Assembly (NCBI GenBank): GCA_023249635.1
Contig: JAHFCH010000011.1
Span: 671 to 64,670, forward strand
Length of the DNA: 64,000 nt
Direction: 5' to 3'
DNA from: Fibrobacterota bacterium
GTDB taxonomy: Bacteria > Fibrobacterota > Fibrobacteria > UBA11236
In this document: positions 5,344 through 62,790 of the stretch, one piece after another
How positions within the stretch are numbered: the stretch's first letter is position 1
Layout: every line of letters starts with the position of its first letter
The notes under the pieces: generated by a model
Databases searched by the model: none
What the model saw: the letters and a program-made list of their open reading frames with translations, nothing else
Told to the model about the DNA's origin: nothing
Translations under genes and position numbers: made by a program

Positions 5344-5385
5344 AAAAGCGGCCCATCCGGAGATTCCGGACGGGCCGCTTTTTTT
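5344..5385. terminator. Bidirectional rho-independent terminator (A4 - 14-bp stem with one mismatch - T7)
   Basis: aaaaGCGGCCCATCCGGAgatTCCGGACGGGCCGCttttttt lies between the 3' end of the PEGA gene (+) and the 3' end of tRNA-Cys (-). Confidence 0.6.
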
Positions 5386-5389
5386 CAAG

Positions 5390-5464
5390 TGGAGGCGACA
5401 AGCGGATTCGAACCGCTGAATAAAGCTTTTGCAGAGCTCTCCCTTACCACTTGGGTATGTCGCC
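5390..5464 (-). tRNA. tRNA-Cys (anticodon GCA)
   Basis: Reverse complement reads GGCGACA..TTCGAATCC..TGTCGCC-T-CCA. Acceptor stem pairs 7/7; T-arm AGCGG/TTCGAAT/CCGCT; anticodon stem GAGCT/AGCTT with loop CTGCAAA (anticodon GCA); U discriminator typical of tRNA-Cys; encoded CCA. Confidence 0.75.
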
Positions 5465-17367: not shown

Positions 17368-17395
17368 AGGAACCTGGAAAAATTGAACGGAAAAG

Positions 17396-17426
17396 AAAAA
17401 GCCCCGCGGATGCGGGGCTTTTTGCT
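17396..17426. terminator. Bidirectional rho-independent terminator
   Basis: aaaaaGCCCCGCggatGCGGGGCttttt lies between the convergent 3' ends of the ABC ATPase gene (+) and the Zn-ribbon gene (-). Confidence 0.6.
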
Positions 17427-17451
17427 TTGGAGCGGAAGGCGGGAAGCGGGA

Positions 17452-20249: not shown

Positions 20250-21437
20250 ATGACGTATTCAGAGAAACCCATGATCCTGGTGGTGGAAGATTCCCGCGTG
20301 CTCGCCAAGGTGATCGAGCAACGGCTTTCGCCCAGTTTTCGGGTGGCCATGGCGCATGACGGCGAGGATGCCCTCCGGCAATTGGCCGCCGGCGGTTACG
20401 CCGCCGTGGTTCTCGATCTCGTGCTCCCCAAGATGGACGGATTCGAAGTCCTTCGCGCCATGCGCCAGCAAGGCATTTCCATTCCGGTGATCATCGCCAC
20501 GGCAAAGCCGCGCCAGGCTGTGGAAGGCGATGCCAAGGAATTCGGGGTGGAAGCCATTCTCTCCAAGCCCCTCGATTACGGGGTGCTGACCGATATGCTG
20601 CAGCAGGCGATTTCCAAATCGTCGGCGATGACGGTGGAAGAAGCTGAAGTCAACCGGGCGACCGGCAAGAAGTATCCCTTCCGCCTGGCCAAGCGATGCT
20701 GCTACATCTGCGGATACGAGAAGGTCCAGGTATTCCTGCCTATCAAGGAAGGCTATGTTGAGGATTGGAACCGCGGCTCCTTTCCCCAATACACCAGCAA
20801 GCCCGGTTACGAGGATTGGGATCATCTCAAGACCCTCGTCATGGTCTGCCCGTATTGCTTTTTCGCATCGTCCGATCCCGCCGATTTCGCGGACAGCAAA
20901 GACGCGTCCTACCCTTACAGCGAAGAGTCCAAAAAGATCCTGGCCCGGAGTATTTCCATCCGCAAGCGGCTGGTGCCCGAAGCCCTGGATATCGACCCGC
21001 GCTTCGATCATCCCTACCGCGATCGCGATACCGTGGTGGTGTCCCTGGTGCTGGCGGAAAAATGCTGCAACGGTCTCATCCTGGCCGGCAAGCCCGGTGC
21101 GTATTGCCAGGCAGGCGTGTATACCACCCTGCAGGGCGCGCTCAATTCTTCCACTGCGGAGAAGTACTATCGCGAAGGCTTGATGAGCTTCGAGAACCAA
21201 CTGAAGCATAAGGAGAGCCCCCGGCGCGTGCTGGTACGGACTTACTTCTTCTGCATAGTCCTGAACATGCAGCTCAACCGCACCATCGTCGGCCGCGATA
21301 TCATGAAAAAGGTCGAGGAACTTTACGCCGACGCCCGCTACGAGGAAATCAGCGACGAAGAGCGGGAGTGGCTGATGCGCATCAACCTCATCTGGAAGAA
21401 CGGCTGCGGGTCGGGAGTGCCCCGGGATATCGTGTGA
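20250..21437 (+). CDS. Response regulator: CheY-like receiver fused to a double CxxC zinc-ribbon plus helical output domain (DUF2225-like from memory)
   Basis: Receiver (LVVEDS.., phospho-acceptor D in VVLDLVLPKMDG, K in ILSKP); C-terminal CCYICGYE..x35..CPYCFF plus helical region; no DNA-binding or enzymatic output recognisable. Confidence 0.6.
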   Translation: MTYSEKPMILVVEDSRVLAKVIEQRLSPSFRVAMAHDGEDALRQLAAGGYAAVVLDLVLPKMDGFEVLRAMRQQGISIPVIIATAKPRQAVEGDAKEFGVEAILSKPLDYGVLTDMLQQAISKSSAMTVEEAEVNRATGKKYPFRLAKRCCYICGYEKVQVFLPIKEGYVEDWNRGSFPQYTSKPGYEDWDHLKTLVMVCPYCFFASSDPADFADSKDASYPYSEESKKILARSISIRKRLVPEALDIDPRFDHPYRDRDTVVVSLVLAEKCCNGLILAGKPGAYCQAGVYTTLQGALNSSTAEKYYREGLMSFENQLKHKESPRRVLVRTYFFCIVLNMQLNRTIVGRDIMKKVEELYADARYEEISDEEREWLMRINLIWKNGCGSGVPRDIV

Positions 21438-22513
21438 AACCGGCCGCTGCCAAGCCGCCCTCCTTCGTCGTACATAATTCCAATTCCGAAATCGGCGGAG
21501 CCGAAGCCAGTCTGCTTGCGGCTGTGGCGGTAAACCTCGCGACCGTAGCCGATGCCCGACCGCTTTTCCTGGTACCCGCCGAAGGCGGCCTTTCCCGCGC
21601 CCTTACCGCGCGCGGCTGGGAGTTCCGCGTCCTGCCATGGCCTCGCGGCCTCGCAGCCCTGACCCAGCGGCGTTTGTGGTCGCTGCCCTTGGCTTTGCCG
21701 GGACTGTTGCCTTACCTGTGGCGCTTGCGGGGGGTTTTCCGGGATGCGGACTCCATCTGGTCCAGCGGCGTCAAAAGCCATTTCGCCTGCCTGCTGCTTT
21801 CGCCCTGGCTGCGCGGCCGGCTCCTCTTTGACGTGCGCGATTTCTTCCGCAACCGGCTCATCCGCCGCTCCCTGGCCTTCGCCTCCGCGCGCTTCGGCTG
21901 CCGTATCGCCGCCAACAGCCGGGCCGTGGCCGCGGATTATCCCGGCGCCGAGGTACGTTACCCGCAGGTTACGCTGCGACGTCCCGCCGTGGACCGCCGG
22001 GTTCCTTCTGGACGTCGCGTAATCGCCCACTTGGCCTACTTCGCCCCCTACAAGGGCCAGCATCTGTTCCTGGATTGCGCCCGGGCCCTGCTCGACGCGG
22101 GCGTGGACGCCGAATTCCTGATCATCGGGGACGTGATTTATCCCGCCGAGTCGTATGCGCGCTATCGCGAAGAGCTGTTCGCCCAGGTAGGCCGCTTGCG
22201 CCTTAACGAGCACGTGCGTTTCCTGGGGAAGCTGGATGGCCCGGAGGCGGTACAGGAGATACTGGAGCGGACCGATCTGCTGCTGCACTGCACCACCGAA
22301 CCCGAACCCTTCGGCCGCGCGGTGATGGAAGCCCTGCTATGCGGGTGCGCAGCGGTATGCCATGGGGGCAGCGGCGTGTGTGAGGTGACGGAAGCGGAGC
22401 GGGGATTCCCGGGGTGGATGGGACCGCTCGGGAAGGTGTTGGGGGAGGAGTACGTGAGGGTGCGGTTGAGTGACGATATCGTCGGGCGTCGGGCGTCGGG
22501 CGTCGGGCGTTAA
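21434..22513 (+). CDS. Glycosyltransferase family 1 (GT4-type); 3' end runs into a repeat element
   Basis: GTG start overlapping the upstream stop (GTGA); C-terminal GT1 core (EPFGRAVMEALLCGCAAVC); last ~12 codons (..VGRRASGVGR) are encoded by GTCGGGC heptads of the palindromic element. Confidence 0.6.
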   Translation: MKPAAAKPPSFVVHNSNSEIGGAEASLLAAVAVNLATVADARPLFLVPAEGGLSRALTARGWEFRVLPWPRGLAALTQRRLWSLPLALPGLLPYLWRLRGVFRDADSIWSSGVKSHFACLLLSPWLRGRLLFDVRDFFRNRLIRRSLAFASARFGCRIAANSRAVAADYPGAEVRYPQVTLRRPAVDRRVPSGRRVIAHLAYFAPYKGQHLFLDCARALLDAGVDAEFLIIGDVIYPAESYARYREELFAQVGRLRLNEHVRFLGKLDGPEAVQEILERTDLLLHCTTEPEPFGRAVMEALLCGCAAVCHGGSGVCEVTEAERGFPGWMGPLGKVLGEEYVRVRLSDDIVGRRASGVGR

Positions 22514-22599
22514 AACTGTGGATTGGTCCTTGTGCGGATTCCCGTTTTAACGCCCGACGCCTAGCCGCGCAGCGGCGTACGCCCGACGCCCGACGATAT
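22475..22599. repeat. MITE/REP-like palindromic element, GTCGGGC-heptad family, copy 1
   Basis: Perfect 20-bp terminal inverted repeats (GATATCGTCGGGCGTCGGGCG .. CGCCCGACGCCCGACGATAT); nested perfect 16-bp inverted repeat (CGTCGGGCGTTAAAAC/GTTTTAACGCCCGACG); extra small hairpin GCCGCgcaGCGGC; four tandem GTCGGGC heptads. Confidence 0.75.
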
Positions 22600-35440: not shown

Positions 35441-35469
35441 GCGGAACCTCCGGGGATTTGTCCGGGGAA

Positions 35470-35545
35470 AGGTTTAAGGTTTAAGGTGGGTGGGTCCCGT
35501 AGGCCCGGTCCAATTCAACCCCCTTAAACCTTAGACCTTAACCTA
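35470..35545. repeat. Palindromic element, GGTTTAA-heptad family, copy 1
   Basis: AGGTTTAAGGTTTAAGGTGGG ..30 nt.. CCCTTAAACCTTAGACCTTAACC; long imperfect hairpin between convergent polyprenyl synthase (+) and mltG (-); a near-identical family member sits at 54594-54681. Confidence 0.7.
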
Positions 35546-43669: not shown

Positions 43670-44319
43670 ACCGCCCCCCGTCCCAGCAACACGGTGGGGA
43701 TGGTCGCCATGATTATTTCCACGTCGATGGCCAGCGAGGCATGCAGCGCGTAGTACACGTCCAGATCGACCATGTCGTCGAATTTCAGGTTGGAGCGCCC
43801 GCGCACCTGCCAAAGGCCGGTCATGCCCTGGGGCACGGTCATGCGCACCTTTTGGATTTCGTTATACTGGCTCACCTCGCGCAACAGCGGAGGCCGCGGT
43901 CCCACCAGCGACATTTCCCCGCGCAGTACGTTCCAGAACTGGGGCAATTCATCGAGGCTGGTGCGCCGCAGCACCCGTCCCACCCGCGTTATCCTGGGAT
44001 CGTTGCTGATCTTGAAAGTGATGCCTCCGGATTCATTCAGGTTGTCGAGCTCCCATTGCCGTAGATGGGCTCCCACCCGCATGGTGCGGAACTTCAGGAA
44101 CTTGAAGCGGTGGCCGTATTGCCCGACGCGGGTTTGCACGAAGAAGATGGGACCGCGGGAGTCGGCTTTGATGAACGCGACCATGGGGAGGAATACGATG
44201 AACAAGAACATGAGGCCGGCCAATGCGCCGGCGACATCGATGCCGCGTTTCGCGGCGTGGTATACGTTACCCCTGAGGACCCTGCTATCCCAAACGCTTT
44301 TCTTCGAGTTTCGTCCCAT
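43666..44319 (-). CDS. Polyprenyl-phosphate sugar phosphotransferase (bacterial sugar transferase family, WbaP/WcaJ C-terminal-domain type)
   Basis: KRGIDVAGALAGL..SRGPIFFVQTRVG..FKFLKFRTM..DELPQFWNVLRGEMSLVGPRP motifs; single TM. Confidence 0.75.
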   Translation of the reverse strand: MGRNSKKSVWDSRVLRGNVYHAAKRGIDVAGALAGLMFLFIVFLPMVAFIKADSRGPIFFVQTRVGQYGHRFKFLKFRTMRVGAHLRQWELDNLNESGGITFKISNDPRITRVGRVLRRTSLDELPQFWNVLRGEMSLVGPRPPLLREVSQYNEIQKVRMTVPQGMTGLWQVRGRSNLKFDDMVDLDVYYALHASLAIDVEIIMATIPTVLLGRGAV

Positions 44320-45523
44320 AAGTTTGCAACAATCTCCGCGCGCATGCGTCCGGCGCGAACTCGGCTTGGATGCCGGCCGCGACTTGGCGCATTTCCTGCG
44401 GAATCCCGCGATTCCGCAGCCTATATTCTCTTATTTTTACCGCCAGGATTGCGCTGTTTTCGGAGGGGAAGAGCGATCCGCGTTCGGGACGGTCGATGAT
44501 CTCCGGGATGCCACCCACGTCGCTGCCCAACAGAAAACATCCCCGGGAAAGCCCTTCCAGTGCCACGTAGGGGTAGTTCTCCATCAAGGAGGGAATCACG
44601 AGGGCCCCGGCCCAATCGTAATGGGCGAGGATACGGGAATGGTCGCAGGGTCCCGCGTATTCCAGCGCGTAATGGCGGCCTCCCGGGCCCATGGGCTGAT
44701 CGCGGTGGGCCTGAAGGGAACGGATGCATTCCGCATCCGTTTCCCGGGTGGGAGGATACATATGGCCCACCACGCGCAAAGTGAGCCCTTCGGCTTCGGC
44801 GCCCAGCGAGTCCAGGGCCTGCAGTAGAACCTGAAGTCCTTTGCGATGTTCGACGCGTCCCACGAAAAGCAGGTTGCCGGGGGCCTTGGAATCCCAGTCG
44901 ACGGGATCATCCCACAGGGAAAGGGGATTACGGTTGACCACGGCTTCGCGTCCCAGGCCCAGGGTATCGCGCACGTAACCTCCGGCCATATACGCGCTGG
45001 GCGACACCACCAAATCGGCCCGCCGGCAGGCCGATCGCTGGAGCGCCATGATTTTCCGCCGTTCCAGGTAATTGTCCGCGTACCCGTCCAGCCAACTGGA
45101 ATGCACCCGACAGACCACGCGGGGGGATTTGCGGCCCGTCTCCGGGCGCGGAAAGTGGGCACCTTCCCCCATGGTTTCGGGATATTCCCAGGCGTCGAAG
45201 CCGGAAGCATCAAGCGATTCCGAGATGTAACGCGCGGCCGTACGCGCCCAGGTTAGCGCATCGAGATAGTGGGGAAGCGCGCGACGGTACCACGCGCGGT
45301 ACGGGTACCAGAGTTTACCGGCGGGGAAATGGTGGCCCAGCATGGGAACGCGGTGCACGGTAACGCCCATCCGTGAGGTTACCTCGGCATAGGGCCCGTT
45401 GCAGACCACGTGCACTTCATGGCCGGCCCGCGCCAGCAGGCCGGCGGCGGCCGCGGAATACGTGGCGATGCCGCCGACATGGGTCAGGGGAGGGTACTCC
45501 CGGGAGAGGATCCCGATTTTCAC
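44285..45523 (-). CDS. Glycosyltransferase family 1
   Basis: GTG start in a GTGA overlap with the upstream stop; VKIGILSREYPPLTHVGGIATY GT4 N-terminus; C-terminal E-x7-E region. Confidence 0.6.
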   Translation of the reverse strand: MKIGILSREYPPLTHVGGIATYSAAAAGLLARAGHEVHVVCNGPYAEVTSRMGVTVHRVPMLGHHFPAGKLWYPYRAWYRRALPHYLDALTWARTAARYISESLDASGFDAWEYPETMGEGAHFPRPETGRKSPRVVCRVHSSWLDGYADNYLERRKIMALQRSACRRADLVVSPSAYMAGGYVRDTLGLGREAVVNRNPLSLWDDPVDWDSKAPGNLLFVGRVEHRKGLQVLLQALDSLGAEAEGLTLRVVGHMYPPTRETDAECIRSLQAHRDQPMGPGGRHYALEYAGPCDHSRILAHYDWAGALVIPSLMENYPYVALEGLSRGCFLLGSDVGGIPEIIDRPERGSLFPSENSAILAVKIREYRLRNRGIPQEMRQVAAGIQAEFAPDACARRLLQTYGTKLEEKRLG

Positions 45524-46851
45524 CGGGACTCCGGCGCAGACGCGGTTCCGCGGGATTTCCGCCATGCGGCCATCAGGCGCTCCGGAATTTCGAGGCGGCG
45601 TTGGCGTAGCCAGGCGGTCTGGGCGGCGGGGACGCGCGCGTCCAGGCCATCGCAATGCGCGCGCAACGCTTTCAGCCAATCGTCTTCGTCGCCGGGGCGC
45701 GGTGCGAGCGCCCCCGTGGCCTGGGCCACGGCTTTCATCTCGCCCGTGGCCGAGCCGATGCAGGAAAGACCTGCGGACATGGCTTCGAAGTAAACGTAGG
45801 GACTGTTCTCCCACAGCGATGGGACCGCCAGAGCGGTGAAGCGCGCGAAGAGGGCCGGCCGGGCTTCCGGAGCGCACGGCGCTTCCCACGCGAGACGGGC
45901 GCGAATGCCGGGGGCTTGGGAGGCCAGGGCTTCCTTTACCGCCTGGGCATAGGGACCCGAGGCGGATCCACCCACCAGGGTCAGGGACGCGAAGGGGCGC
46001 TCTTCCGCCAAGCGCAGAAAGGCGCGCACGAGCACAAGCACGCCTTTGCGTTCTTCCACGCGGCCCAGGTACAGAAAGCGCGTCGGCAGGATGCTGGCGG
46101 GTACGGACAGGGCCCGTGCGCGTTCCCTGGCTTCCGCGGGATCCGCCGGCGCTGCGCTCCAGCCGCTGCCGGTATTCGGCGGCGGCGGTCGCAGGGTCGG
46201 GGTGGCGACGGCTTCCGTGCGGGCAAGGGCCGCGGCGCGCGCGGATCGCAGCGGTTCCACCAAGTCCGGGATGGCCATTTCGTAGGGTAGGGGATTGGGC
46301 ACGTGCTCCCAACCCCGCAGCCAGGGCATCCGTTCGCGCACGAACTCGGCGGAAGGCGCGGCCAGGAAAGGCGCGCGCGCGAGGCAATCGCGTTCGCGCC
46401 ATTCCGAAAGCCGATCGGAGAGCCTTGCGCGCAGTCCCGTCACGGGCGCATGCGGTACCAGGAACGCGGGAGTATGGATGCGCACCTGGCAGCGTGGCCG
46501 TAAGGCCCGGTTGCGCAAGGCGAAGAAGGCATAACCCTGGAAATCGCAGAACTCGTAAACGCGATCCGGCGCGTCCGCCGCCGCCAACTCCCGTTCCAAC
46601 CAATAGGCGTGCTCCCACATGACATTTTCGCCGTAGAAAAGGCGATAGGCCAGGCCGCGGAACGGGCTGCGGAGCCAGGCACGCCGTCCGATGGGCAACG
46701 CGGTTTCCCCGGAATAGGCGGAGGGATTATGCGTATAGACTTTTCCGGTCATACCTTGCTTCCGGCATAGGTCGAGCGCCAGGCGGATATAGGTGCGGAT
46801 ACCGCCGCCGGCGGCGTCCGGGGGTTCGGGGTCGATGAAGACGAGTTGCAT
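45520..46851 (-). CDS. Glycosyltransferase family 1
   Basis: MQLVFIDPEPPDAAGGGIRTYI.. GT4 N-terminus; ..PSLWENSPYVYFEAMSAGL.. C-terminal core. Confidence 0.55.
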   Translation of the reverse strand: MQLVFIDPEPPDAAGGGIRTYIRLALDLCRKQGMTGKVYTHNPSAYSGETALPIGRRAWLRSPFRGLAYRLFYGENVMWEHAYWLERELAAADAPDRVYEFCDFQGYAFFALRNRALRPRCQVRIHTPAFLVPHAPVTGLRARLSDRLSEWRERDCLARAPFLAAPSAEFVRERMPWLRGWEHVPNPLPYEMAIPDLVEPLRSARAAALARTEAVATPTLRPPPPNTGSGWSAAPADPAEARERARALSVPASILPTRFLYLGRVEERKGVLVLVRAFLRLAEERPFASLTLVGGSASGPYAQAVKEALASQAPGIRARLAWEAPCAPEARPALFARFTALAVPSLWENSPYVYFEAMSAGLSCIGSATGEMKAVAQATGALAPRPGDEDDWLKALRAHCDGLDARVPAAQTAWLRQRRLEIPERLMAAWRKSRGTASAPESR

Positions 46852-46871
46852 GCTGGGGATCCGCTCGGGTT

Positions 46872-48500
46872 TCAGCGCGTACCGCCGCCCGCGGGCAGCT
46901 TGCGCTCCAGGAACCAGGATACGTATCTGGGCAGGAAACGGTGCATGGCCGCCAGGATGCGGCGATCGTCTTCCTGCGGCTTGAACAGGATCAAGGTGAG
47001 GATAAGGTAAGCGAATCCGGATATCGCCACGGCGAATCCCAGCCGCACCGAGCGCATCCCGAACAGGATATCGAAATCGTGCCCGGTCCATTCGTAGAGC
47101 AGGCTCTGGGTAGGGGCGAAGATACTGAATTGCGGGCTCTCGAGTTTCAGCAGCGAAGCCATGATGGCGCTCATGATGGCGGTAGCGAAAGCGGTTTTGC
47201 CCCACGCCCCCCAGGGTATGCTCAGATCCAGGTTGCGCGAGGTATATATGAATCCGCCGATGACGCCCAGGGACGTGGTGAAGGAATAGCAGAACGCGGC
47301 CCCGCGGGACCCGTAGCGCGGGACCAGCCAGATGCACAGGGCGATGTTCAACACGGCCAGGACCGCGCCGTATTTCAGTATGAATTGCTGGCGATTGCTC
47401 GCGTAGATGACGGCGGAGCCAGGTTGCGCCAGGGACGAAAGCAGGGCCCCGGCGCAAAGGATCTGGAAGCAATCCTTGGTCTCGCTGTACGCGTGCCCGT
47501 AGAAGATGACCACCAGCTCGTAGGCCGCCAGGAAGCATATCGCCACGGTGGGCAGCACAAAGAAGGCCGAGTAACGCAAGGCATGCCGGTAGGTCTTCTT
47601 CATCTTCTCGTGTTCCATGCGCCCGTGTTGCTCCGAAGAGAGGGGCAGCAGCAGCCGCCACATGAGGTTCGGCAAGGTGCCCGTGAACTTGACGATCAGG
47701 TTCTGGGCCAGGTTGTAATAGGCGATCTGCGAAGCCGCGCAGTAGCGTCCCAGAAAGTAATTCTCCGAGCGCGACCACACCACCAAGTCCACGAAGTGGA
47801 TGCCGATACCGGAGCGGCTGTATTCCAATAACTCTTTTTTCCATTTCCCGTCCGAGGGCTGGAAGCGGAACCAGCCCTTGAGCAGACCCTCTTTGCGGGC
47901 GGCCAGGTAGTAGAAAACGAGGTTTACGACCGCGAAGATCAGGTTGATCCAGAACAGGGAGAGCAACCCCCACCCCTTATACATGACGTAGACCTTGGTC
48001 AACAGGGCTAACGGCGTTACGGTGAGCGAATGCACCGTTTGGTAGCGGAAGATTTGCGCGCCCTCCAGGGTCGCGGAGAAAATCGCCGTCTGGATGCCCG
48101 GGGTAATCGCCAGGAACGCCAGCATGAAAATCATGCTCTGGTTTCGGGAGAAGTAATGATCGGCGATGCGCGAGGCGTAGCACATGAGCCCGATGCTGGT
48201 AACCGCGGCGATGGCGAACTCGATGTAGAAGATGAAACGTACCGCGGAGAGAACATCCCCGTGCCGGCCCTCGGCGCGGAACTGGGCGGTGAACTTGGTT
48301 ATCGAGGTGATGAATCCAAGCGAGATGACCACCGAGACCGTGCCCGCGAACCACTGTACCTGATGGAAGATTCCCAGCTTATCCGGGCCCAGGGAGCGGG
48401 CCATGACGACCGACGCGGCCATGCCCAACACGAACGAAACCGCGTTGGAACACAGGAAATGGACGATATTACGGGCGACCTTGCGGAGCGTGGCCGACAT
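46872..48500 (-). CDS. wzx: Wzx-type polysaccharide flippase (MOP superfamily)
   Basis: About 14 TM helices; polysaccharide-biosynthesis-protein-like N-terminus (..VSFVLGMAASVVMARSLGPDKLGIF..). Confidence 0.7.
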   Translation of the reverse strand: MSATLRKVARNIVHFLCSNAVSFVLGMAASVVMARSLGPDKLGIFHQVQWFAGTVSVVISLGFITSITKFTAQFRAEGRHGDVLSAVRFIFYIEFAIAAVTSIGLMCYASRIADHYFSRNQSMIFMLAFLAITPGIQTAIFSATLEGAQIFRYQTVHSLTVTPLALLTKVYVMYKGWGLLSLFWINLIFAVVNLVFYYLAARKEGLLKGWFRFQPSDGKWKKELLEYSRSGIGIHFVDLVVWSRSENYFLGRYCAASQIAYYNLAQNLIVKFTGTLPNLMWRLLLPLSSEQHGRMEHEKMKKTYRHALRYSAFFVLPTVAICFLAAYELVVIFYGHAYSETKDCFQILCAGALLSSLAQPGSAVIYASNRQQFILKYGAVLAVLNIALCIWLVPRYGSRGAAFCYSFTTSLGVIGGFIYTSRNLDLSIPWGAWGKTAFATAIMSAIMASLLKLESPQFSIFAPTQSLLYEWTGHDFDILFGMRSVRLGFAVAISGFAYLILTLILFKPQEDDRRILAAMHRFLPRYVSWFLERKLPAGGGTR

Positions 48501-50669: not shown

Positions 50670-51613
50670 TTTTTGATCACCGAGGTAATCACGAACCAGG
50701 CCGTGAGGAACGTGACCATGTCGCGCATGATATCGAGGGTCTTGGTCCAAGTGACCACCTTGGCGTACATGATGATCATGTCGCCCTCTCCCAGCAGGGG
50801 CAGGTCTTCGGTCTTACCGTTGTCGATGAACTTCTGCATATCCAGCACGTAGTCGGCCTTTTGCCCGCCCAGCGCCGAGATGATGCGCACCTTGTGCATG
50901 TTGGCGTCCGGGGCCGGCCCGCCGGCCAGGTAGAGCATGTCGAATACGGAAGCCTGTTCGCCCACGGGGTAGAACCCGGGCTTGCTGACCGCCCCGAGGA
51001 TTTTCACGTACTTGGATTTCTTGGAGGAGAGCAGAATGATGCGATCGCCATCGTACAAGGTCGGCAACAGCGTCAGGTCGCCCGAGCTCAGGAACTTCTG
51101 CAAGTCGTAGTAGCTGGCGTTCTCGTCGCCCTGGTTCTTACGCACGATCTTGACGCGCTGCAGGTCCGCGGTCTCGAGGCTGCCGCCGGCGGCCAGCATT
51201 ACTTCCTGCAGGCTGGCCTTGGGGGGCATCATCAGTACGCCGGGTTTCTTGACCTGGCCCAGCACGTAAAGGGAAATGGGATTCTCGGTCAATACGCTCA
51301 CCAGCACCATCGGCGACTCCACCACTTTGGCGAGTTTGTAGGTGAGGATGTCTTGCAACTCGCTGGTGGTCTTGTCGACCACGGGTACGTCCTGGTAGAG
51401 CGGGTAATCGATGGTGCCGTTATCGTTCACGCGCACGATCTGGGAAAGCTCTTTGTCGTTCTTCACCACGATGTTCAAGGTCATCCCGGATTTGATCACG
51501 GTCGCGGCGCAAGGCGAACTCAAAATGAAAAGTGAAAACTGAAAAATGAAGACGGAAAGGAATGCGAATCCTGTCCCGATGGCGGTTTGCACTTTGAAAT
51601 TTTCACTTTTCAT
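50666..51613 (-). CDS. wza: Polysaccharide export outer-membrane protein (Wza-like)
   Basis: Signal peptide, Poly_export-like region (..TLNIVVKNDKELSQIVRVNDNGTIDYPL..), two SLBB-like segments; ATGA overlap with wzc. Confidence 0.75.
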   Translation of the reverse strand: MKSENFKVQTAIGTGFAFLSVFIFQFSLFILSSPCAATVIKSGMTLNIVVKNDKELSQIVRVNDNGTIDYPLYQDVPVVDKTTSELQDILTYKLAKVVESPMVLVSVLTENPISLYVLGQVKKPGVLMMPPKASLQEVMLAAGGSLETADLQRVKIVRKNQGDENASYYDLQKFLSSGDLTLLPTLYDGDRIILLSSKKSKYVKILGAVSKPGFYPVGEQASVFDMLYLAGGPAPDANMHKVRIISALGGQKADYVLDMQKFIDNGKTEDLPLLGEGDMIIMYAKVVTWTKTLDIMRDMVTFLTAWFVITSVIKK

Positions 51614-51628
51614 TTTTCACTCTAGGCT
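51518..51628. repeat. AT-rich palindromic element, GTGAAAA-heptad family, copy 1 (spans wza start codon and signal-peptide codons)
   Basis: Left arm AAAATGAAAAGTGAAAACTGAAAAATGAAGA (encodes FIFQFSLFIL on the minus strand); right arm TTTCACTTTTCATTTTTCACTC (contains the wza ATG); 17+ bp of complementarity between arms. Confidence 0.7.
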
Positions 51629-51667
51629 TTGTGGGCTATCCGATTATACTCCCTGGATCGCTTTCGC

Positions 51668-54593: not shown

Positions 54594-54681
54594 GGGTTTA
54601 AGGTCTAAGGTTTAAGGTGGGGGAATTCAACGCCGTGAACATTCCCCTTAAACCTTTAACCTTAAACCTTAAACCTTCTTC
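54594..54681. repeat. Palindromic element, GGTTTAA-heptad family, copy 2
   Basis: GGTTTAAGGTCTAAGGTTTAAGGTGGGGG - 20 nt - CCCCTTAAACCTTTAACCTTAAACCTTAAACC; upstream of exbB and of the divergent gene starting 54817. Confidence 0.7.
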
Positions 54682-61903: not shown

Positions 61904-62030
61904 CATATCGTCGGGCGTCGGGCGTACGGGGCGAAGCGCCCCTAAGCGTCGGGCGTAAATGCGAAAATGCTCCCATTTTCTTGCATTTACGCCCGACGCC
62001 GAACGCCCGACGCCAAACGATGCGCTGCTA
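61904..62030. repeat. MITE/REP-like palindromic element, GTCGGGC-heptad family, copy 2 (inverted orientation, more degenerate)
   Basis: CATATCGTCGGGCGTCGGGCG .. GGGGCGaagCGCCCC .. CGTCGGGCGTAAATGC / GCATTTACGCCCGACG .. CGCCCGACGCCAAACGATG; same terminal 20-mer as copy 1 on the left, degenerate on the right. Confidence 0.7.
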
Positions 62031-62117: not shown

Positions 62118-62639
62118 ATGACCCAAGAGGCCACCGGCGCCGGCAAAGACGATATGCTCGAAAGCATGCTCAAAGGCCTTCGCGAGGATGAAATCGGGGT
62201 GCTGGATCGGTTTACCGACTACCAGAAATCCACCGCTCCCTTTTTCGAAAAGGTCGAAGTCGCCCACGAGTTCCTGGATCTGCTCACCTTCAAGATCAAG
62301 GAGAGCAAGTCGAAGATGAACAAGGAACTGCTCGCGCAGTTCTCCCTGGCCTTCCTCCGCCAGACCGTCCGCACCTACGGCTACAATCCCAAGTTCGTCG
62401 CCACCCAGGCCAAGGCCCTCATCACCTATTACCAGAACCAGAAGAACCTGGAGAGGGCCATCGAGGTTTGCGAATTCCTGATCCTACAGGGCATCACCGA
62501 TGACGATGCCAAGGGATTCCACGTCCGTCTCGACGAGTTGTACCGCCTCAAGCGGAAGATCGAGGAAAAGGGCGGGGATATTTCGGGGATCAGCTTTCCG
62601 ACCATGGATGATGATGAGTCGGATGATTCTGAAGAGTGA
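62118..62639 (+). CDS. Hypothetical protein with acidic C-terminal tail
   Basis: CAGGGGA RBS; 173 aa; ends DDDESDDSEE; followed by a perfect 7-bp hairpin GCAGAACtaagagtGTTCTGC. Confidence 0.45.
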   Translation: MTQEATGAGKDDMLESMLKGLREDEIGVLDRFTDYQKSTAPFFEKVEVAHEFLDLLTFKIKESKSKMNKELLAQFSLAFLRQTVRTYGYNPKFVATQAKALITYYQNQKNLERAIEVCEFLILQGITDDDAKGFHVRLDELYRLKRKIEEKGGDISGISFPTMDDDESDDSEE

Positions 62640-62663: not shown

Positions 62664-62790
62664 AGGGCTAAAAGTGAAAAAGGAAAAGTGAAAAATTAAA
62701 AAATCAAATTTTTGTATGTCGCTGGCGGGTTAGGGTCCGCCCTCCCGGTTTTTCACTTTCCATTTTTCACTTTGATTTTTTAGCCCCAGC
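62664..62790. repeat. AT-rich palindromic element, GTGAAAA-heptad family, copy 2
   Basis: CTAAAAGTGAAAAAGGAAAAGTGAAAAATT .. GC-rich centre (GGCGGGttagggtCCGCC) .. TTTTTCACTTTCCATTTTTCACTTTG; the right arm is 22/24 identical to the wza-overlapping copy. Confidence 0.7.

Follow-up and report, generated by a model that had tools for sequence, protein, structure and literature searches.

Heptanucleotide palindromes at gene ends in an uncultured Fibrobacteria lineage

A 64,000-nucleotide stretch of contig JAHFCH010000011.1 (hereafter the window), whose proteins place it in an uncultured Fibrobacteria metagenome-assembled genome (MAG), contains two copies of a palindromic element with arms of tandem GTCGGGC heptanucleotides: copy A at 22475–22599 and an inverted copy B at 61904–62030. 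In the reading we favour, with a probability of roughly 0.55, both are dispersed extragenic palindromes of this lineage, resembling repetitive extragenic palindromic (REP) sequences and the hairpin-forming doublets of such sequences (REPINs). We call them heptad palindromes, and infer for them a role at RNA 3' ends and a mode of spread.

Anatomy of the two copies

An earlier reading of the window (the original prediction) had described both copies, and all of its sequence strings lie where it placed them. Copy A (plus strand) is supported as a single element by its sequence, by an inverted-repeat scan and by its predicted fold (−94.9 kcal/mol, z = −11.6). It begins with a terminal ATATC, followed by four GTCGGGC heptads, a hairpin (P2) and the inner right-arm heptads; it continues with TAG, a small hairpin (P3), GTA, the outer right-arm heptads and GATAT. 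The four perfect tandem heptads of the left arm span 22481–22508 on the plus strand (exact matches at 22481, 22488 and 22495) and also constitute a G3N4 x4 motif. The 20 bp at 22476–22495 (ATATCGTCGGGCGTCGGGCG) form the exact reverse complement of the outer right arm at 22580–22599 (CGCCCGACGCCCGACGATAT). Nested between these ends, P2 (22499–22561) is a perfect inverted repeat with the predicted 27-nt loop and a stem of 18 bp (22499–22516 and 22544–22561) rather than the 16 bp given originally. Its distal 8 bp (GTTAAAAC and GTTTTAAC) consist of non-heptad sequence, and its 5' arm includes the TAA stop codon (22511–22513, plus strand) of a glycosyltransferase (GT1) open reading frame (ORF). P3 (GCCGC-gca-GCGGC, 22564–22576) interrupts the right arm, as seen in both the sequence and the fold.

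Copy B displays the architecture of copy A inverted (minus strand), again in sequence, fold and inverted-repeat scan. It is more degenerate, as predicted, with outer arms 81% complementary and inner 22-nt arms 91% complementary. It comprises two outer heptads (61910–61923), P3 (GGGGCG-aag-CGCCCC, 61928–61942), the arms of P2 (61946–61967 and 61978–61999) and a degenerate four-heptad arm (61990–62022), and its inner 8-mer reads GTAAATGC where copy A has GTTAAAAC.

Although 39 kb apart, the two copies align at 80% when placed in the same orientation, and their parts follow one order: terminal ATATC, four heptads, P2, one and a half right-arm heptads, YTAG, P3 (whose sequence differs), GTA, two heptads and GATATGCC. 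As non-heptad sequence, both copies contain CGCCCGACGCYTAG, GTA and GATATGCC. Copies A and B did not arise independently in place, because these junction motifs outside the heptads are shared; the copies descend from one another. Five base pairs differ between them, three in P2 and two in P3; all five changes are compensated, and no stem is disrupted on one side only. The aligned copies demonstrate that the predicted interior hairpins are free to change in sequence while their pairing is kept. The predicted fold is a Y-shaped three-way junction atop a GC-rich heptad stem, which could form in single-stranded DNA or in RNA.

Occurrence against chance and assembly error

The double heptad occurs nine times in the window against 2.3 expected, a count reached by none of 100 shuffled sequences, and CGCCCGACG occurs 13 times against 2.7 expected. 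The folding energy of copies A and B is −94 to −96 kcal/mol whichever strand is taken (z from −9.3 to −11.9), and none of 200 shuffles equals it. We built a detector for heptad palindromes that requires two tandem 7-mers with their reverse complement at most 300 nt away. It finds six elements in the window, five of them strong, compared with 0.27 (none strong) across 30 dinucleotide shuffles; set to periods of 8–10, it finds zero elements in the window. The shuffles of heptad counts, folding and detector output rule out a chance palindrome.

An assembly artefact is also ruled out: copy B and the neighbouring element are unchanged in three independent assemblies. An independent metagenome assembly (L099) is 100% identical to the window over 2159 nt that include copy B, and a third assembly (L100) is 99.75% identical, with all four differences falling outside the elements. 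We observe no variation in heptad number between these near-identical strains and the window.

Related palindromes in other genomes

Names beginning with L denote loci collected from scans of genomes, metagenomes and plasmids, about 983 kb in total. The original prediction had argued for a mobile or recombinogenic family from two copies, and the relatives examined bear out a dispersed multi-copy family, with at least seven copies in the Fibrobacteres MAG RYN_348 (GCA_028287505.1), more in Fibrobacteria-like contigs, and presence or absence at orthologous sites. RYN_348 is syntenic with the window over 11.8–33.2 kb (DNA identity 70–88%), and its copies lie in L050, L056, L072, L077, L090 and at two sites in L101. 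In the five loci that came from the genome scan they take the form (GTCGGGC)x4 … (GCCCGAC)x4 with interiors of 56–142 nt. The arms are perfect, though the flanking coding DNA of the window and RYN_348 is about 74–80% identical. Three more GTCGGGC palindromes are found in the Fibrobacteria-like metagenome loci L109 and L121 (GC content 0.60). Members of the GTCGGGC family are palindromes of about 120–200 nt with a basal stem typically of four heptads and variable interior hairpins; the left arm has four units in 10 of 12 Fibrobacteria-type cases, and all copies from RYN_348 and L109/L121 fold with z from −7.9 to −13.4. The density is two copies per 64 kb in the window and at least seven per approximately 60 kb in RYN_348, where five of the loci had been selected for the repeat.

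A scan of the genome collection with a permissive 18-mer yields mostly chance matches in GC-rich genomes among the matches listed. A palindrome-specific pattern recovers 23 metagenome loci. Two are the Fibrobacteria-like L109 and L121, and 17 come from a single sample, Ga0268241; these 17 have a GC content of about 0.72 and interior modules in common with a Gemmatimonadaceae MAG (L065). A second phylum thus has the same heptad in the same arrangement, which may reflect transfer or convergence. The Gemmatimonadaceae-like organism possesses at least 17 GTCGGGC palindromes, and their arms display a 21-nt higher-order period (two GTCGGGC units and one GCACGGC) and are often of unequal length. Interior modules are common to subsets of the RYN_348 copies, and likewise to subsets of the Gemmatimonadaceae-like copies. 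Two long RYN_348 copies (L101:3548–3740 and L077:5572–5775) have in common a module of approximately GCGGCGG-GGAA-GCC-GCCGTT-GCCC-AGCCGCCCA, which points to another, smaller repeat lying within the heptad palindrome.

Other heptads build the same kind of palindrome. A GTGCAAA palindrome occupies L127:6368–6502, where the corresponding genes of the window overlap, and L134 has an AAAATTG type at a site that is empty in the window: heptad types are evidently lineage-specific among Fibrobacteria genomes. The control loci L003, L028 and L046 hold palindromic arrangements of other heptads in Pyrinomonadaceae (GGGATGA), in Thiocapsa (CAGCTAT) and in a Burkholderiaceae MAG, the last with four heptad palindromes within 8 kb (GTCGGGA, GTCGGCA and GTGGCGA). 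On the evidence of these sequences, the architecture is cross-phylum. Of the 16 heptad types collected, 13 have the G-rich array as their 5' arm, a trend rather than a strong statistic since some types are related; in the GTCGGGC palindromes recovered with an orientation-blind pattern it is 5' in all.

Viral contigs give zero matches to the palindrome pattern, and plasmids give a single match, in pTAV3 of Paracoccus versutus, a cultured alphaproteobacterium, where about 22 GTCGGGC units form a plain array. A megablast search with pure heptads also gives zero matches, probably an effect of the low-complexity filter. A phage or plasmid element is rejected on the viral and plasmid results. The pTAV3 array (L133:1500–1650, or NZ_CP035286.1 at about 855976–856125) is non-palindromic, is flanked by convergent genes and reaches into the stop codon of a DAHP synthase gene.

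Further heptad palindromes in the window

The original account is incomplete: four other heptad palindromes, of two other sequence types, lie in the same window and had been overlooked. Two are of a GGTTTAA type (GGTTTAA … TTAAACC). The first (35468–35543) is located between a convergent polyprenyl synthetase gene (plus strand) and YceG (minus strand), and the second (54595–54679) occupies the promoter region between divergent exbB and a 152-aa gene. The other two are of a GTGAAAA type, in which the arms are themselves A-rich and T-rich tracts. One (51522–51630) lies between the tonB stop codon and a Poly_export gene, both on the minus strand, and overlaps the signal-peptide codons of the latter; the other (62671–62781) separates a 173-aa gene (plus strand) from a convergent methionine aminopeptidase (MetAP) gene (minus strand).

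Gain and loss at orthologous sites

Comparison with related genomes reveals filled and empty versions of the same gene junctions. The GT/GGR junction that holds copy A is also filled in RYN_348 (114-nt gap), and is empty in L102 (3 nt) and in a P0002 contig (25 nt). The RYN_348 element at this junction has the architecture seen in the window, with an entirely different P2 and P3. The reverse situation occurs at an ABC permease/ATPase junction, which contains a 193-nt element in RYN_348 and is empty in the window, where the stop and start codons overlap. The junction of a kinase gene with the 173-aa gene, filled by copy B in the window, is empty in L127, L129/L130, L131, L134, L135 and a P0083 contig. 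The GTGAAAA-type element between the 173-aa and MetAP genes is missing from L129, L131, L134 and the P0083 contig (20–44 nt), and L127 has an extra CHAP-domain gene and no palindrome at this junction. Finally, the GGTTTAA-type element between exbB and the 152-aa gene has empty counterparts in L127 and L129. The related loci that could be examined, six for copy B and 2–4 for the others, lack copy B and three further window elements. These alignments demonstrate that elements are gained or lost at single intergenic sites between related genomes.

An insertion of another kind occurs in the close relative L135 (2306–2615), where the 173-aa protein is 90% identical: the 173-aa/MetAP junction holds an unrelated 308-nt insert with no heptad palindrome, which contains a GC-rich hairpin and a GACTTCA doublet.

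Position at gene ends and absorption into coding sequence

Sixteen of 17 Fibrobacteria-type elements adjoin at least one gene 3' end, the exception being the element at 54595–54679. The distance from stop codon to element ranges from −57 to about +70 nt, and usually the element either overlaps the stop codon or lies about 20–70 nt away. Neighbouring genes are in tandem in nine cases, convergent in five and divergent in one, and two cases have an assigned neighbour on one side only.

As predicted, the GT1 ORF (21368–22513, 359 aa) translates the heptads and ends at the TAA within copy A, which supplies its last 12–13 codons. Translation enters copy A because the ORF has no stop codon before the element. 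The Pfam Glycos_transf_1 domain covers residues 190–322 of 359. Among 14 aligned homologues, the conserved part of the protein stops at approximately EYVRVxL and the tails beyond it vary freely, so the tail is lineage-specific, a point that the original prediction had wanted checked. A heptad-encoded tail is found only where the element is present, in the window and in RYN_348 (…GVGRRASG…); the GT stop codon of RYN_348 likewise lies inside the element, and the two reading frames differ relative to the heptads. The C-terminal tail is evidently incidental read-through and not conserved protein.

Absorption also occurs at a gene start. The T-rich heptads of the 51522–51630 element encode the hydrophobic core (…FLSVFIFQFSLFIL…) of the signal peptide of the minus-strand Poly_export/SLBB protein, and the conserved mature N-terminus ATVIK follows this core. 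In L129/L130 the orthologous protein carries a 23-aa signal peptide of unrelated sequence. This element appears to have been co-opted as coding sequence.

Comparison with known repeat classes

The original prediction proposed a family resembling both MITEs (small transposable elements with inverted repeats) and REP sequences. The broader part of the proposal holds, as the element is a dispersed multi-copy hairpin repeat in a REP-like position; the narrower MITE reading is not supported. The terminal inverted repeats are those of a MITE, perfect over 20 nt and 82% matched over 34 nt in the window, and perfect over 28–31 nt in RYN_348. The interiors (56–142 nt) are mostly unalignable and have only subfamily modules in common, so that neither interior nor size is conserved as in a MITE. 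A check for target-site duplications, which had been suggested, finds no consistent direct repeat beside any of about 12 copies. Neither a solo arm nor a longer element with GTCGGGC ends was found in the collected DNA, and a tblastn search of the same DNA with an IS200 TnpA query, which has low sensitivity, gives zero matches. A classical MITE is disfavoured on these grounds: no consistent target-site duplication, no conservation of interiors or lengths, and no transposase or longer element with these ends found in the collected DNA, viral contigs or plasmids.

REP sequences are defined as 20–40-nt palindromes, one end of which bears an unpaired GTAG or CGTC tag, and the CGTC type has an 8–9-bp stem starting with A/T pairs, a 4–5-nt loop and a CCA tail (Di Nocera 2013, PMC3733652). 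The GTAG/CGTC-REP class is excluded for the elements described here, in which CGTC is paired and repeated in every heptad, and which have neither an 8–9-bp A/T-initiated stem nor a CCA tail. Their inverted doublet folds as one long hairpin, in the manner of REPINs, and they are extragenic, mostly downstream of ORFs, between same-direction or convergent neighbours, a location that most REPs have as well (PMC3733652). The likeness to REPs, bacterial interspersed mosaic elements (BIMEs) and REPINs (PMC3116915, PMC3733652) covers the extragenic and multi-copy distribution, the inverted doublet giving a single long hairpin, the mostly ORF-downstream location, the lack of target-site duplication, several families per genome and presence that varies between strains. 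The unit differs: that of a REP is an imperfect 20–40-nt palindrome with an unpaired tag, whereas the arms of heptad palindromes are tandem heptads. Their interiors also vary far more than REPIN spacers, and whereas REPINs have a partner REP-associated tyrosine transposase (RAYT), none is known for heptad palindromes; a RAYT or TIRYT partner is a plausible lead.

A known RNA family is ruled out, since no Rfam model reaches its gathering threshold at the elements: a tRNA is all that the window yields at gathering level, and sub-threshold plant miRNA-precursor models score 25–30 bits against gathering thresholds of 137–150.

The original prediction did not recognise the family, but a class of this kind had already been described in Xanthomonas (PMC4692102) and Geobacter (PMC2700814). 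To judge from the repeats themselves, the nearest published description is that of the Xanthomonas G-rich heptameric repeats, and the GTCGGGC palindromes are an addition to this described and mechanistically unexplained class. The Xanthomonas GGGAATC repeats prefer four units, form 70–75 convergent inverted pairs per genome, are biased to sit at or over stop codons, are transcribed, and form quadruplexes in vitro (Rehm et al. 2015, PMC4692102). The family described here has the features of that class: G3-tract 7-nt units numbering four or more, convergent pairs and a stop-codon location. The likeness includes the tandem G3-tract heptads, the four-unit preference, the converging inverted G-rich pairs, the intergenic location with a strong stop-codon bias, and the partial positional conservation between related species. 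The two differ in heptad sequence, phylum and GC content; in the family described here, structured hairpins that evolve by compensated changes fill the space between the arms, and a hairpin often interrupts one arm. Unlike in Xanthomonas, the same Fibrobacteria genome also builds the architecture from heptads without G3 tracts, and turnover among Fibrobacteria relatives looks faster than the 83% positional conservation in Xanthomonas would imply.

In Geobacter metallireducens, heptanucleotides in groups of four or five form strand-switched pairs, and the annotation treats them as putative sites for a global regulator (PMC2700814); the pairing, strand switch and unit number all recall the elements of the window. 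Like the cyanobacterial short tandemly repeated repetitive (STRR) sequences and the TAACTGA repeats of Beggiatoaceae, the Geobacter arrays are short, intergenic 7-nt tandem arrays of lineage-specific sequence (PMC4679880, PMC2700814). However, the STRR and TAACTGA arrays are mostly direct and unpaired and are not described as hairpins around structured interiors, and the TAACTGA arrays lie just upstream of start codons (PMC4679880).

Several hairpin-forming families are of comparable size to the elements described here. The bacterial MITEs known as Correia repeat enclosed elements (CREE) and enterobacterial repetitive intergenic consensus (ERIC) sequences, and the Rickettsia palindromic elements (RPEs), are about 100–150 nt long and form long RNA hairpins in transcripts, and RPEs can be absorbed in-frame into genes, a likeness to the GT tail and the Poly_export signal peptide. 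These families have conserved interiors, and Correia elements also have TA target duplications and integration host factor (IHF) sites. We know of none among the three with ends made of heptanucleotide arrays.

Discussion

Under the favoured reading, copies A and B as REP/REPIN-like palindromes would be transcribed within the 3' untranslated region and would act as RNA 3'-end hairpins. By analogy with REP/BIME elements, the hairpin may block 3'-to-5' exonucleases, or mark or insulate transcript ends; in some family members the interior hairpin also resembles an intrinsic terminator. Slippage in the arrays, together with template switching from arm to arm (quasi-palindrome correction), could preserve the purity and complementarity of the arms. 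Dispersal would require a trans-acting activity that leaves no target-site duplication, for example an HUH/Y1-type single-strand enzyme or recombination. Stem-loops mark transcript 3' ends irrespective of the Rho dependence of termination (PMC13613805), which is consistent with the proposed 3'-end role.

A number of points weigh against this reading. The role at the RNA level is one that we infer from position and analogy. Compensated changes can come mechanically from arm-to-arm template switching on DNA, and are not proof of selection on RNA structure because template switching can produce them. A pure hairpin model explains neither the 7-nt period nor the four-unit preference. One window element sits in the divergent promoter region at 54.6 kb, and the copy count for the window's own genome covers 64 kb. 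A mobilising enzyme was not found in partial checks of the collected DNA, viral contigs and plasmids. A rule requiring a hairpin followed by a T-tract is passed by none of the six window elements and by 6 of 17 elements family-wide (about 2.4 expected). At the GT/GGR junction, one ancestral element lost in L102 and two independent gains both fit, since the distance from the window is the same for L101 and L102. The exact insertion boundary is not definable from the filled and empty alignments, in which the closest relatives have 88–91% protein identity, because the flanks of the empty sites are too diverged.

An unlikely alternative is origin in place: slippage beside pre-existing hairpins would create the arrays, template switching would make the arms symmetrical, nothing would be copied between loci, and the heptad itself would reflect a mutational or compositional bias. 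In most bacterial genomes, no long simple-sequence repeats are more abundant than heptanucleotides, and a link between slippage and a 7-nt polymerase contact has been proposed (Mrazek 2007, cited in PMC4692102 and PMC4679880). GTCGGGC also forms plain arrays (about 22 units in pTAV3, and others in L040 and L079), the Gemmatimonadaceae-like arms are unequal with their 21-nt period, and heptads differ by lineage (L127, L134, L003, L028), all of which suits this origin. It does not account for the non-heptad motifs and hairpin order common to A and B at a distance of 39 kb, or for the modules common to unlinked copies. Free slippage should also spread arm lengths, whereas these are uniform, and the empty sites of 3–25 nt contain no seeding hairpin.

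We consider it rather improbable that the elements function as double-stranded DNA, that is, as mirror-symmetric arrays of sites that a multimeric protein would bind, for instance a global regulator, DNA gyrase or a nucleoid-associated protein. Escherichia coli BIMEs bind gyrase and IHF. The heptads are conserved across loci and species while the interiors drift, one element lies in a divergent promoter region, and the paired arrays of Geobacter carry a putative regulator-site annotation (PMC2700814). However, compensated pairing in the interior stems is needless for an arm-binding protein, the three unrelated heptads of the window would require three proteins, and 16 of 17 elements are at gene 3' ends and not at promoters.

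A similarly low probability attaches to the view that the elements are primarily bidirectional intrinsic terminators, with heptad arms that merely lengthen the stem. Several interiors from RYN_348 and L109/L121 do consist of an A-tract, a GC-hairpin and a T-tract, and at L101:11042 a hairpin is followed by GGTTTTTTCTTCTCTTT. The six terminator-like elements exceed the expectation noted above, and four of them are terminator-like on both strands; five elements lie between convergent genes, and the GTGAAAA-type arms are A-rich and T-rich. Against this, a canonical terminator is rejected for the window copies, as in none of the six, copies A and B included, is a hairpin directly followed by a T/U tract. 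Ordinary compact terminators are present elsewhere in the genome (5344–5382 and 17391–17428), one RYN_348 copy is located within an ABC-transporter operon, and one window copy occupies a divergent promoter region.

More doubtful still is a switch between G-quadruplex and hairpin, in which a quadruplex of the four G3N4 units, in DNA or RNA, would compete with pairing to the C-rich arm and modulate transcription or RNA decay. The four-heptad array matches the G3N4 x4 motif and fits G3N1-7 x4 exactly, which makes it a potential quadruplex. Four is the modal arm length, as in the GGGAATC repeats of Xanthomonas that form quadruplexes in vitro (PMC4692102), and the G-rich array tends to be the 5' arm (13 of 16 heptad types). 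But the GTGAAAA and GGTTTAA types of the window have the same architecture without G3 tracts, and a 28-bp GC-rich duplex (about −95 kcal/mol) should beat a three-tetrad quadruplex when both arms are present. The least probable explanation is a classical MITE, an insertion-sequence deletion derivative mobilised by a DDE transposase through recognition of its inverted ends: the long near-perfect terminal repeats, small size, multiple copies and presence or absence between relatives would suit it, but about 12 copies lack a consistent flanking direct repeat, interiors and lengths are unconserved, the approximately 983 kb of collected DNA contain no solo arm or longer same-ended element, viral contigs give zero matches and the plasmid match is a plain array.

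A bolder reading, which we regard as speculative and unlikely, sees the elements as cross-phylum programmable gene-end modules, in each of which a local hairpin is flanked by a converging pair of arrays, with about four G-rich heptads per array. They would be recognised and dispersed by one dedicated factor able to read nucleic acid 7 nt at a time. The candidates would be a protein of the oligonucleotide-binding (OB) fold/cold-shock type, with one monomer per heptad, or a single-strand HUH enzyme. Binding of cold-shock OB-fold proteins at about one monomer per heptamer has been offered as a physical reason for the 7-nt period (PMC4679880). Such a factor, if real, would account mechanistically for an excess of heptanucleotide repeats that has long been noted in bacteria. 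We know of no explanation for this over-representation in many bacterial genomes.

Returning to the reading of heptad palindromes as REP/REPIN-like elements, the heptanucleotide repeats of Fibrobacteria and of a Gemmatimonadaceae-like lineage occur in inverted, converging pairs of arrays, with structured hairpins held between them at the ends of genes. Their turnover between relatives is quick, and they are absorbed into coding sequence at both gene ends. The locus ties what was observed in Xanthomonas and Geobacter to a REP-like biology that spans phyla, and it offers concrete filled and empty sites. The palindromes reveal no new mechanism. In practical terms, heptad palindromes create spurious C- or N-terminal extensions in gene calls, and they could be used as strain markers.

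Other features of the window

The 173-aa protein beside copy B (62118–62639) has no Pfam match and has 157 homologues in Fibrobacteria at E ≤ 1e-5, with 63–92% identity among the best 120 of the 157. Its gene is always located between a Ser/Thr kinase gene and the methionine aminopeptidase gene, and a conserved T-rich motif (TTTTTTAAGTTTG-like) precedes it. The two compact bidirectional terminators mentioned above (5344–5382 and 17391–17428) are of the ordinary A-tract, GC stem and T-tract form, and the former adjoins a tRNA-Cys gene (5390–5464, minus strand). Two long overlapping ORFs, 44285–46618 and 45520–47973, occupy the minus strand at 44285–47973, each with a C-terminal GT1 domain. Gene calls in this region are ambiguous, the region is unassigned in a composition-based gene map, and a frameshift is possible.

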